This document shows, piece by piece, positions 49,156 to 51,822 of a stretch of DNA of 64,000 bases (position 1 is the first letter of the stretch; the number at the start of each line of letters is the position of its first letter). The translations under genes and the position numbers were made by a program. The DNA comes from Candidatus Omnitrophota bacterium (lineage in GTDB: Bacteria; Omnitrophota; Gorgyraeia; Gygaellales; JAQTUX01): contig JAQTUX010000001.1 of the NCBI GenBank assembly GCA_028707125.1, positions 725,764 to 789,763 on the forward strand. The letters are read 5' to 3'. The notes beneath the pieces are model-generated. The model saw nothing but the letters and a program-made list of their open reading frames with translations, was not told the DNA's origin and did not search any database.

Positions 49156-51822
49156 ATGTTGGAACCACTTTTGAATAAGCCCGTAGGGATAGCCGTTATT
49201 TTGAGATATTTATTTTTTCCTATATCTATAATTTTGTGTTTTTCACCCTGCGTTTTCGCAGCTCAGCCGGTAAATATTTCTGTCGAGCCATCATCCGGCA
49301 CATTTGAGGTTGGTGAAACCCATTTATTCACCACAACTTACTCGGATTCCGATACAAGGAATGACATCCGTTTTGCAGAATTTCTTATTAGGGGCGCAGA
49401 GGGCTCGGTTAGATTGCTCTATGTGCCCGGAGAAAACAAGATAAGCCTGATGGGTGATAACGGTAGCTGGTCAGGGAACTATGCTCCCGGATCAAATCAT
49501 ACGGTTGAGAACAGATACGCAACATTGGATTGCTCAAAGACAATGGTTCACAGCAACGATCCAGACAATATCACCATTGCCTGGGCGCTAAAATTTAAAG
49601 AAACATTCTCAGGCAGGAAAGACCTCTTGCTTGCTGTAACAGAATGGCCTGTTTCAGGTAGGAATCCATTTATCGGCTGGGATAAAAAGGGAGATATTAC
49701 AGTTACAGAAACATCCGCAACCAGTATCCCCATTGCTTTTGGCCAGACCCTTTTGGGTTCAATTGATGATGCGGGAGAGAAAGACGATTTTATTTTCTCC
49801 GGTATAAACGGTGATGTGATAACCTTCTTTTTTGCTAAGACGAGCGGCAACATCAGCCCTTATTTGGAACTTTACGGCCCTGATGGCGCGCTTATCGGTT
49901 CCGCCTCTGTTGATTATCCTTATAGCGGTAGATTTGATAAGACATTAACGGTTAAAGGCATATTTAAGATTGCGCTTAGAGATAAGAATAATAGAGATGT
50001 GGGTACCTACTCTTTAAGCATGCAACGTGTAAATAATCCCGGCCTTGCCAGCGCGCTTAATTTCGGCCAGCATGTCTCAGGAGCCATTGATTCCTTTGCC
50101 AAGATAGTTACCTATAAATTCTCGGCCTCTGTCAATGATAAGATCTGTATGCCCTTTAGCAGCGCCTCAGGGTCTTCAAGTTATTTTCAACCGTACCTTG
50201 AACTTTACGACTCCACCGGTAAAAAGATTGCGGATGCATATACTATGTATCCAGAATATGAGGGGCAGGTACTGTCTGCAACTATTACTGTTTCGGGGGA
50301 ATTCGTACTTATAGTTAGCGACAAGGGTTTAAATAGCACAGGCACTTATGAGCTCGTTCTTCAGCGTGTCAACAATCCGGAGAATCCAACCGGTATTAGA
50401 TTTGGTCAAACAATACAAGGCAGTATCGACACAGGTTCAGATATTGATGTCTTTAGTTTTAACGCTTCAGCTAATGATGTGGTATATGTGTGTTATATGA
50501 AGACTTCAGCCGCTGGAGGTAGTTTCTGGCCGTATTTTGGATTATATGATTCTACAGGCACGCCTATAGCATGGAGTGATAGTAGCGGAAAGTTTATTCA
50601 TAAACTTTCCGCTACCGGCAGATTTTATCTTTTGGTTACTGATTATCGTCATTTCAGCAGCGGTACCTATGAATTTACTCTTCAGCGTGTCAACAATCCG
50701 GTGAATGCTGTTTATCTTGATTTCGGACAAACTGTTTCCGGCGCAATATCTACATTGGCCGATATTGATGTCTACAGTTTTACTGCCTCGGCCAATGATG
50801 TCGTGACTGTTCGTTTTGCCACAACCTCAACTACTTATGGGGCGTTAGAGCCAAATCTTGAACTCTACGATACAGCCGGTAATAAAATTCCAAACCTTAG
50901 TACCTATGCACGTTCAGGCTCTATTACCGGGAAATTGGATGCTTCAGGAATGTTTTATCTCTTGGTGACGGACATTTGGCAAAACGGAACCGGCACGTAT
51001 GAGCTCACTATCCAGCGTATCAACAATCCTGGGAATGTAAGAGACTTGAATTATAATTCCAGTGTTGAAGATACGATAGATTCTACGGGAATTAAGATGT
51101 ATAGATTTACTGCTGCTGCCGGAGATGCGGTAACCCTGTATTCTCATATTAAGACATATACTTCGATTTTTGATTTATATTTAGGGATATATGATGCCAT
51201 AGGCGCGCTTCTTACTTCTTCTTCGGGGCGCCTTAAATATACCTTTACCACCGGAGGAACATTTTATCTTTTTGTCGGCAATTCTTATCTAAAGGGCGGC
51301 GGCAGATATAAACTTATCTTATTAAGCGGCGATGTTCCCTATTCATCCATAGATTTGATTGATCCGCTGGTTTCTTTATCCAGGCCGCTGACAGGAGAAG
51401 CAATTGAGAGCGGTTCAACATATACTATCAGATGGCATTCTTCAGATAATGTAGGTATAAGTTTTCAGGAAATCAGATTATCTACGGATGGCGCAGTAAC
51501 CTATCCTATCGTGATTGCCTCTGGTTTATCTGCCGACACCCAATCTTATAATTGGGCTGTTCCGGCAGATTTATCCACCACCAGAGCAAGGATAAAGATA
51601 GTCGTTCAAGACGCCGCAACCAACATGGGCGAGGACGCAAATCGAGACGATTTCTTGATACTTAACGCTGTTCTGCCGGCAGGCGCCGTAGATATTAATT
51701 ATGAATATGACAACCTCCATCGTCTCACCAGCACAATCTCCACAGAGAAGCCGTCTTTGGGGTATGTTTATGATAGTCTGGGGAATCGCACAGAATTAGA
51801 TATAATTAGGGGGTCGCCCTGA
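49156..51822 (+). CDS. Large secreted protein with about 6 tandem PPC (pre-peptidase C-terminal-like) beta-sandwich repeats, a Kre9/GPI-anchored-like domain and two C-terminal YD repeats
   Basis: A signal peptide is followed by roughly 105-aa repeats ending in (L/M/I)QR(V/I)NNP, each with FGQ...G.ID...D.DV(F/Y)SF...YLELYD..G motifs (about 49735-51330). The C-terminus YEYDNLHRLTS...YVYDSLGNRTE is RHS-type YD repeats. Confidence 0.65.
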   Translation: MLEPLLNKPVGIAVILRYLFFPISIILCFSPCVFAAQPVNISVEPSSGTFEVGETHLFTTTYSDSDTRNDIRFAEFLIRGAEGSVRLLYVPGENKISLMGDNGSWSGNYAPGSNHTVENRYATLDCSKTMVHSNDPDNITIAWALKFKETFSGRKDLLLAVTEWPVSGRNPFIGWDKKGDITVTETSATSIPIAFGQTLLGSIDDAGEKDDFIFSGINGDVITFFFAKTSGNISPYLELYGPDGALIGSASVDYPYSGRFDKTLTVKGIFKIALRDKNNRDVGTYSLSMQRVNNPGLASALNFGQHVSGAIDSFAKIVTYKFSASVNDKICMPFSSASGSSSYFQPYLELYDSTGKKIADAYTMYPEYEGQVLSATITVSGEFVLIVSDKGLNSTGTYELVLQRVNNPENPTGIRFGQTIQGSIDTGSDIDVFSFNASANDVVYVCYMKTSAAGGSFWPYFGLYDSTGTPIAWSDSSGKFIHKLSATGRFYLLVTDYRHFSSGTYEFTLQRVNNPVNAVYLDFGQTVSGAISTLADIDVYSFTASANDVVTVRFATTSTTYGALEPNLELYDTAGNKIPNLSTYARSGSITGKLDASGMFYLLVTDIWQNGTGTYELTIQRINNPGNVRDLNYNSSVEDTIDSTGIKMYRFTAAAGDAVTLYSHIKTYTSIFDLYLGIYDAIGALLTSSSGRLKYTFTTGGTFYLFVGNSYLKGGGRYKLILLSGDVPYSSIDLIDPLVSLSRPLTGEAIESGSTYTIRWHSSDNVGISFQEIRLSTDGAVTYPIVIASGLSADTQSYNWAVPADLSTTRARIKIVVQDAATNMGEDANRDDFLILNAVLPAGAVDINYEYDNLHRLTSTISTEKPSLGYVYDSLGNRTELDIIRGSP

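Follow-up and report, generated by a model that had tools for sequence, protein, structure and literature searches.

A secreted Omnitrophota protein with a single YD-repeat pair is encoded with an RHS toxin and may dock onto its shell

Introduction

RHS cocoons are well understood where they are delivered by a secretion system of type VI (T6SS) or type VII (T7SS) or by a TcA injector. In the Tc toxins, the TcB and TcC polypeptides both supply YD repeats to one continuous cocoon, and the known rhs orphans are 3' pieces made up of core and toxin, whose DNA is homologous to that of the main gene. For diderm bacteria that lack these machines, we know of no described route that takes their signal-peptide-bearing RHS toxins to the target. 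Here we analyse a stretch of 64,000 nucleotides from a Candidatus Omnitrophota bacterium (contig JAQTUX010000001.1, positions 725,764 to 789,763; hereafter the window), in which an RHS toxin gene is followed by a gene for an 888-residue secreted protein with exactly one YD-repeat pair at its C-terminus. We refer to the latter as the accessory protein. An earlier note on this DNA, made from the sequence, had explained the YD end either by recombination with an rhs element or by docking of the protein onto the RHS shell, and these and other explanations are weighed below.

Results

The accessory protein ends in one YD-repeat pair

The earlier note had read the C-terminus of the accessory protein as RHS-type YD repeats, and this identification was upheld, the repeats amounting to exactly one pair. 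TIGR01643 matched residues 851-881 with 17.8 bits against a cut-off of 15.8, and PF05593 scored 19 bits over the same residues, under its cut-off of 22. A profile built from the Ig and YD region of the homologues matched the YD repeats of solved Rhs structures with E = 1.4e-19 (8h8a), and it also matched Tre23, Tse5, Tse15 and teneurins. Given the alignment of this region, AlphaFold2 (AF2) predicted four strands in the YD pair with a predicted local distance difference test score (pLDDT) of about 90. A hidden Markov model (HMM) of the pair, referred to here as the tag HMM, detected one pair (53.6 bits) in the 888-residue protein versus 13 stretches in the neighbouring RHS protein. The pair is joined to the preceding Ig domain by a linker of 10 residues and the protein ends 5 residues past it, with no toxin and no match to TIGR03696 or PF03527. 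With one pair, no core and no toxin, the accessory protein is not an RHS protein.

The earlier note had also proposed aligning this C-terminus with the repeats of the upstream RHS protein. The tag HMM did match pairs of the shell, the best being a mid-shell pair (residues 859-895, 32 bits) and the second the last pair ahead of the core (residues 993-1025, 18 bits), but no unique counterpart was obtained. A separate idea, that the Ig and YD region resembles the FN-plug of teneurins, was rejected, as Foldseek returned only generic fn3/Ig matches and placed a teneurin at rank 26 with a poor template modelling score.

The unit of Ig domain and one YD pair is conserved

An alignment of 28 homologues, 25-50% identical overall, and 18 further metagenomic loci were used to follow the pair across the family. 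In 28/28 aligned homologues, the Ig domain is joined by a short linker to exactly one YD pair, and exactly one pair followed the Ig domain at all 18 further loci. Y849, Y851, D852, L857, Y870, D873 and N877 are invariant among the 28. The YD pair lies 5-20 residues from the stop codon of an intact open reading frame (ORF) in half of the aligned homologues (14/28); in the remaining ones it lies within the protein, ahead of fn3, dockerin, TSP3, PKD or other domains. The shell of the neighbouring protein is built of a repeat, one copy of which is the most conserved short element of the accessory protein.

At the DNA level, the longest exact match between the sequence coding for the pair and the adjacent rhs gene was at most 12 nucleotides, which amounts to no homology, and none of the homologues examined ran on from the Ig domain into a full RHS shell. 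The conserved single pair, the absence of DNA homology and the absence of a continuation into a shell together exclude a recent recombination scar. The earlier note's suggestion of such a scar, or of a displaced rhs 5' segment, is therefore contradicted by a single pair kept in every aligned homologue and by a DNA match this short.

Wider searches were also carried out. The Ig and YD profile gave 85,558 matches among 1.84 billion representatives, the 150 best being without exception giant proteins with many Ig domains or many YD repeats, and a search of a genome collection returned two short loci only. Three candidates were examined and set aside: P0189, the one candidate for a fusion of Ig and then YD, is a BNR/Reelin-repeat protein and not an RHS protein; the C-terminal extension of P0013, considered as a C39 domain that would link the two proteins in Rosetta-stone fashion, had no BLAST or phmmer similarity and no Pfam match; and the ORF after P0016 in L011, considered as a split-off Ig and YD unit, is unrelated.

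RHS genes lie upstream of most accessory genes

The gene neighbourhood was compared over 17 loci, the window included, that had at least 2.9 kb upstream of the accessory homologue. Fifteen of them (the window, L001, L002, L003, L005, L006, L008, L009, L010, L013, L019, L021, L023, L031 and L033) have a co-directional RHS gene upstream; at L009 the RHS and C39 genes are seen only as fragments and the accessory gene is intact. The loci span Omnitrophota, Bryobacteraceae (Acidobacteriota) and one genome of 71% GC. The layout of the RHS and accessory genes varies from overlapping by 4 bp (L003) to lying about 3 kb apart, with small immunity-like ORFs and at times a Y1 transposase in the space between. 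The association is also seen with the domain order swapped, since the gene for P0069 (165 residues: signal peptide, YD pair, Ig) starts 1 nucleotide after an RHS gene, and no RHS gene lies within 10 kb of a distant PPC-type protein that has no YD pair (L012). The pairing with rhs, which the earlier note had proposed to check in related genomes, was seen at 15 loci and not, within about 3 kb upstream, at L007 and L018.

The RHS partners have a signal peptide wherever the complete N-terminus was seen, together with DUF6531, and a C39 domain was found in those of the window, L008, L010, L023 and L009. PAAR or VgrG was never found in these partners. In the window, the three genes from the RHS toxin to the accessory protein also share a low GC content at third codon positions (GC3), at 0.46 for the RHS gene, 0.18 for the 76-residue ORF between them and 0.40 for the accessory gene, versus 0.54-0.67 for the flanking genes. 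The flanking genes have housekeeping roles (purA, an OmpA-family gene, uppS, cdsA and dxr), and the three genes lie between purA and the OmpA-family gene. The low GC3 relative to these neighbours, a foreign codon composition, marks the three genes as a compositional island acquired as a unit. Taken with the synteny, it strongly supports the earlier claim that the RHS gene and the accessory gene are one functional or evolutionary unit.

Several features of individual loci were noted. A dockerin subfamily (L009:10001-13197 and L010:6582-9778) carries a C-terminal dockerin past the YD pair, and next after it comes a secreted protein that has cohesin and invasin-D3-like domains, a combination that is unusual outside cellulosomes; P0022 is a dockerin variant with a cohesin protein after it. 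In three related loci, the RHS-immunity pair is separated from the accessory gene by a Y1 (IS200-like) transposase gene (L008:8685-9356, L009:9314-9799 and L010:5895-6380). At L010, the signal peptides of the RHS protein (1488-1570) and the accessory protein (6582-6660) are nearly identical (MALKCKSLCITFLLIPWLIFLLFS and MAVKFKSWCITFFLIPWMISLLFS), a hint that the 5' end was duplicated or that the two are co-targeted. In the 71% GC genome, the RHS gene is read in three overlapping frames (L013:4618-9999; 1065, 344 and 388 residues) with out-of-frame tails, which indicates frameshifts or a pseudogene, and at its N-terminus there are beta-sandwich domains in cis (CHB_HEX_C_1, Fn3_assoc and CarboxypepD_reg).

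Most of the accessory protein is an array of beta-sandwich domains

The accessory protein comprises a signal peptide, an N-terminal domain, five pre-peptidase C-terminal (PPC)-like beta-sandwich repeats and a Kre9-like Ig domain, from which a short linker leads to the YD pair. Its sequence matches the NCBI entry 'MAG: hypothetical protein PHR44_03865 [Candidatus Omnitrophica bacterium]', encoded on a 1.26 Mb contig, with 100% identity. At 888 residues it is not the giant protein that it had been called. Homologues have clear signal peptides with an A-x-A end ahead of QTPI. Residues 36-186 form a separate domain that the earlier description passed over; this region had no Pfam match and an AF2 pLDDT below 50, and it is covered by only 8/27 homologues at 22% identity.

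An HMM built from the repeats gave exactly 5 matches in the accessory protein (125-163 bits), delimiting copies of about 105-110 residues at 187-295, 296-408, 409-515, 516-625 and 626-730 with 24-50% mutual identity. No sixth copy was found with this HMM, so the earlier count of six is reduced to five, and the closing motif (L/M)QRVNNP that had been ascribed to every repeat appears, as QR[VI]NNP, at the end of only 4. The assignment to the PPC type is weak by sequence in this protein, where PF04151 scored 16.5 bits against a cut-off of 25.9. It is backed by the homologues P0024 (43.4 bits), P0028 (48.0 bits) and P0012 (27.8 bits), which pass the cut-off, and by the fold: AF2 modelled the repeats with pLDDT mostly above 90, and Foldseek placed the tandem collagen-binding domain s3a-s3b of ColG (5iku) at rank 2 with E = 6.9e-8. 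The repeats match the beta-sandwich fold of collagen-binding and pre-peptidase C-terminal domains. In most homologues (alignment of P0002-P0031), every repeat boundary bears a pair of cysteines (QRxNNPC...CGQ) that is lost in the window protein; these pairs probably form disulfides.

The Ig domain was matched by PF10342 (Kre9_KNH) over residues 744-810 with 25.3 bits against a cut-off of 24.6. It was modelled with pLDDT above 90, and its Foldseek match is to the fn3-like modules of CbhA. The Kre9 part of the 'Kre9/GPI-anchored-like' label used earlier is thus justified, and the match says nothing on glycosylphosphatidylinositol (GPI) anchoring.

The upstream RHS toxin gene and the ORF in between

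The RHS protein of the window has 1278 residues and is composed of a signal peptide, TPR, Peptidase_C39 (residues 166-286), DUF6531 (residues 347-418), the YD shell, the Rhs core (residues 1102-1181) and a toxin domain of about 97 residues. RHS_repeat scored 247 bits in 13 stretches, C39 48.8, DUF6531 43.7 and Rhs_assc_core (TIGR03696) 75.9, and the core motifs DPIGL and DPWGL are at residues 1154 and 1177. Pfam and NCBIfam scans gave no match to PAAR or VgrG in this protein. The C39 domain retains Cys and His motifs (Table 1) whose residues we take to be catalytic from general knowledge of the family. Between C39 and DUF6531 lies a conserved CxCCPPxALGG motif, which is also present in the RHS partners at L002 and L003, and at L010 the TPR-C39 part is a separate protein, the break falling at this very point. 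The motif looks like a double-glycine self-cleavage site, at which cleavage would release the cocoon.

The toxin domain had no Pfam or PDB sequence match. The partner toxin of L010 matched Phospholip_A2_1 with E = 1.1e-6, below that family's cut-off, and the two toxins have in common the pattern YGxxGG...PxDxxDxxFxxHD. The window toxin may be a phospholipase A2-like lipase with a hydrophobic tail.

The accessory gene had been described as lying directly downstream of the RHS toxin; in fact, the ORF for a 76-residue membrane protein lies between the two. The gaps are 15 bp from purA to the RHS gene, 53 bp from the RHS gene to this ORF and 19 bp from the ORF to the accessory gene. The composition of the 76-residue ORF is extreme (GC 0.23, GC3 0.18). 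It is probably an immunity protein, given its position and its counterpart at L008. The immunity-like ORFs are membrane proteins. Scans of 44700-52700 for promoters and terminators gave nothing better than shuffled sequence. Elsewhere in the window, a 583-residue ORF at 40721-42472 without a Pfam match lies between genes for a DUF1573/DsbD-like protein and an HMGL-like synthase.

Table 1. Coordinates in the window of the RHS toxin gene, the 76-residue ORF and the accessory gene, with their domains
Feature	Position	Strand	Basis or remark
RHS toxin gene, 1278 residues	45016-48852	+	Pfam and NCBIfam scans
Peptidase C39 domain in the RHS N-terminus	45511-45873	+	Cys motif SFSCGPESL at residues 167-175, His motif HYVVVTG at residue 244
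CSCCPPAALGG motif (residues 313-323), between C39 and DUF6531	45952-45984	+	candidate double-glycine self-cleavage site
RHS C-terminal toxin domain (residues 1182-1278), hydrophobic tail	48559-48849	+	same toxin type in L006 and L008
76-residue two-helix membrane ORF	48906-49136	+	61% identical to the 76-residue ORF after the same toxin type in L008
Accessory protein gene (PPC repeats, Ig, single YD pair)	49156-51822	+	888 residues, intact ORF
Accessory signal peptide (residues 1-35)	49156-49260	+	read from sequence; ends in CFSPCVFA, followed by AQP
Accessory N-terminal domain (residues 36-186)	49261-49713	+	extra domain, absent in most homologues
Five tandem PPC-like beta-sandwich repeats (residues 187-730)	49714-51345	+	repeat HMM, AF2, Foldseek
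Kre9/KNH-like Ig (fn3-like) domain (residues 737-836)	51364-51663	+	PF10342, AF2, Foldseek
Single YD-repeat pair (residues 847-883)	51694-51804	+	TIGR01643; four beta-strands; 5 residues ahead of the stop

Discussion

We favour, at about an even chance of being right, the explanation that the accessory protein is a secreted subunit of a Sec-exported, T6SS-independent RHS cassette and that its YD pair docks on the shell of the RHS protein. The cassette would comprise the RHS toxin, the small membrane immunity-like protein and the accessory protein. The lone YD pair, a four-strand meander without a core of its own, would pack on the RHS shell by adding its strands to the beta-sheet there, and the joint cocoon of TcB and TcC is a precedent that makes such docking in trans plausible. 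The PPC array, with the fold of collagenase collagen-binding domains, could then give target binding or surface anchoring to a container that has no injection machine, so that the accessory protein would bridge the RHS shell to another surface. Bridging is suggested by the variants with a dockerin beside a cohesin gene, or with fn3 or TSP3 domains past the YD pair. The earlier note's alternative of a partner that docks onto the RHS shell is in this respect plausible and fits everything seen.

Some results weigh against docking. L007 and L018 have no RHS gene in the approximately 3 kb upstream, where genes for phosphoenolpyruvate (PEP)-utilising enzymes are found instead; the tag HMM fits no one position of the shell uniquely; Foldseek returned no solved arrangement of Ig and YD that would hint at a docking geometry; and the accessory protein is encoded after the toxin and immunity genes, unlike the order of TcB and TcC. 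The two proteins could instead be linked in function without touching, the accessory protein being an adhesin or anchor in the same antagonism or predation pathway and the YD pair a structural or ligand-binding element, for example for a glycan. The two loci without a nearby upstream RHS gene would sit well with such an arrangement, as would the variants in which the YD pair is mid-protein with other domains after it, and synteny by itself is no proof of physical contact. However, it gives no reason for an adhesin to keep exactly one copy of its neighbour's shell repeat with the signature residues invariant, nor for the association to persist when the domain order is reversed, and we consider it unlikely, if still a serious candidate. 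Contact with the shell might also occur on the producer's side, where the accessory protein would help in export or assembly, or would be a surface decoy that shields kin independently of the toxin, and would not be a targeting subunit. It is indeed kept across loci with differing RHS toxin domains, and in some variants dockerin and cohesin look like a tether to the producer; yet small toxin-specific immunity-like ORFs are already there, and long PPC arrays are typical of binding modules, which leaves a producer-side role improbable.

Because an isolated four-strand meander needs a partner surface, and in every known shell the YD hairpins are packed next to one another, the pair might be thought to drive self-association of the accessory protein into a small YD sheet or barrel, independent of RHS. 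The strict adjacency to RHS genes would then be left unexplained, and we judge this to be very unlikely. The least probable account is that the pair is a recombination remnant, in which a displaced rhs 5' segment became fused by accident to an unrelated adhesin. Loci of rhs are recombination hotspots and the YD pair is a true RHS-type repeat, but an accident of this kind could hardly have yielded the same unit of Ig domain and one YD pair in more than 40 homologues of 25-57% identity with invariant residues and intact stops, and there is neither DNA homology to the adjacent rhs gene nor, among the homologues seen, any whose Ig domain is followed by a fused full shell.

Returning to docking, the single YD pair might more generally be a portable docking tag for RHS shells, a proposal that we put forward tentatively. 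Its extension to a class of Sec-exported, T6SS-independent two-component RHS toxins, into which binding arrays (PPC, Ig, fn3, dockerin) would be plugged in trans, is possible to the same limited degree. If docking occurs, a conserved partner with one YD pair and a long binding array would answer how RHS toxins without an injector reach their targets, and would account for the way in which bacteria that have no injection machine, such as Omnitrophota, target or display these toxins. It would also be a new use of the YD repeat, as a single docking module and not as a building block of a shell. The pairing is found in at least two phyla. Omnitrophota are a poorly known group with suspected host-dependent or predatory lifestyles, on which the finding bears. 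The accessory family is probably new, no description of it having been found in the literature searched, the coverage of which was incomplete, with most subscription journals outside it.

The closest relatives of the individual parts differ from them in recognisable ways. The PPC and collagen-binding domains of secreted proteases (PF04151; ColG, 5iku) have the same fold and tandem layout as the five repeats, but the accessory protein is without a protease domain, has its own Pfam score under the cut-off and ends its array in an Ig domain and a YD pair. The known rhs orphan fragments likewise place rhs-type sequence beside a full rhs gene, whereas the YD pair is a two-repeat module in a conserved, intact secreted protein without DNA homology to rhs. 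As an analogy only, dockerin-cohesin tags are also short conserved modules, often at the extreme C-terminus, with varied passengers and encoded beside a presumed partner; the YD pair is unrelated to dockerin in sequence and fold, and its binding is putative.

Like the Sec-dependent RHS/WapA-type polymorphic toxins (Zhang et al. 2012, PMC3482391), the upstream RHS protein as a whole combines a signal peptide with a YD shell, an Rhs core and a variable C-terminal toxin, and a small immunity-like gene lies downstream. In that study, C39-like peptidases appear only as toxin domains, whereas the C39 domain of the window is N-terminal, ahead of DUF6531, and a search of the study for a PPC or standalone-RHS accessory protein found nothing. 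T6SS Rhs effectors differ from the window RHS protein, whose N-terminus is made of a signal peptide, TPR and C39, which has no PAAR or VgrG match and whose gene is flanked by housekeeping genes. With Tc (ABC) toxins, the locus has in common a toxin-carrying YD/RHS cocoon that works with a separate, larger binding component (TcA). No TcA, TcB beta-propeller or SpvB domains were detected by Pfam in the RHS protein, the accessory protein or the ten neighbouring genes, and in contrast to Tc the accessory protein supplies one YD pair only, the binding part being a PPC and Ig array. The cassette is neither a Tc complex nor a T6SS Rhs system; by analogy, it would work most like a binary toxin in which a binding subunit is docked to the cocoon.

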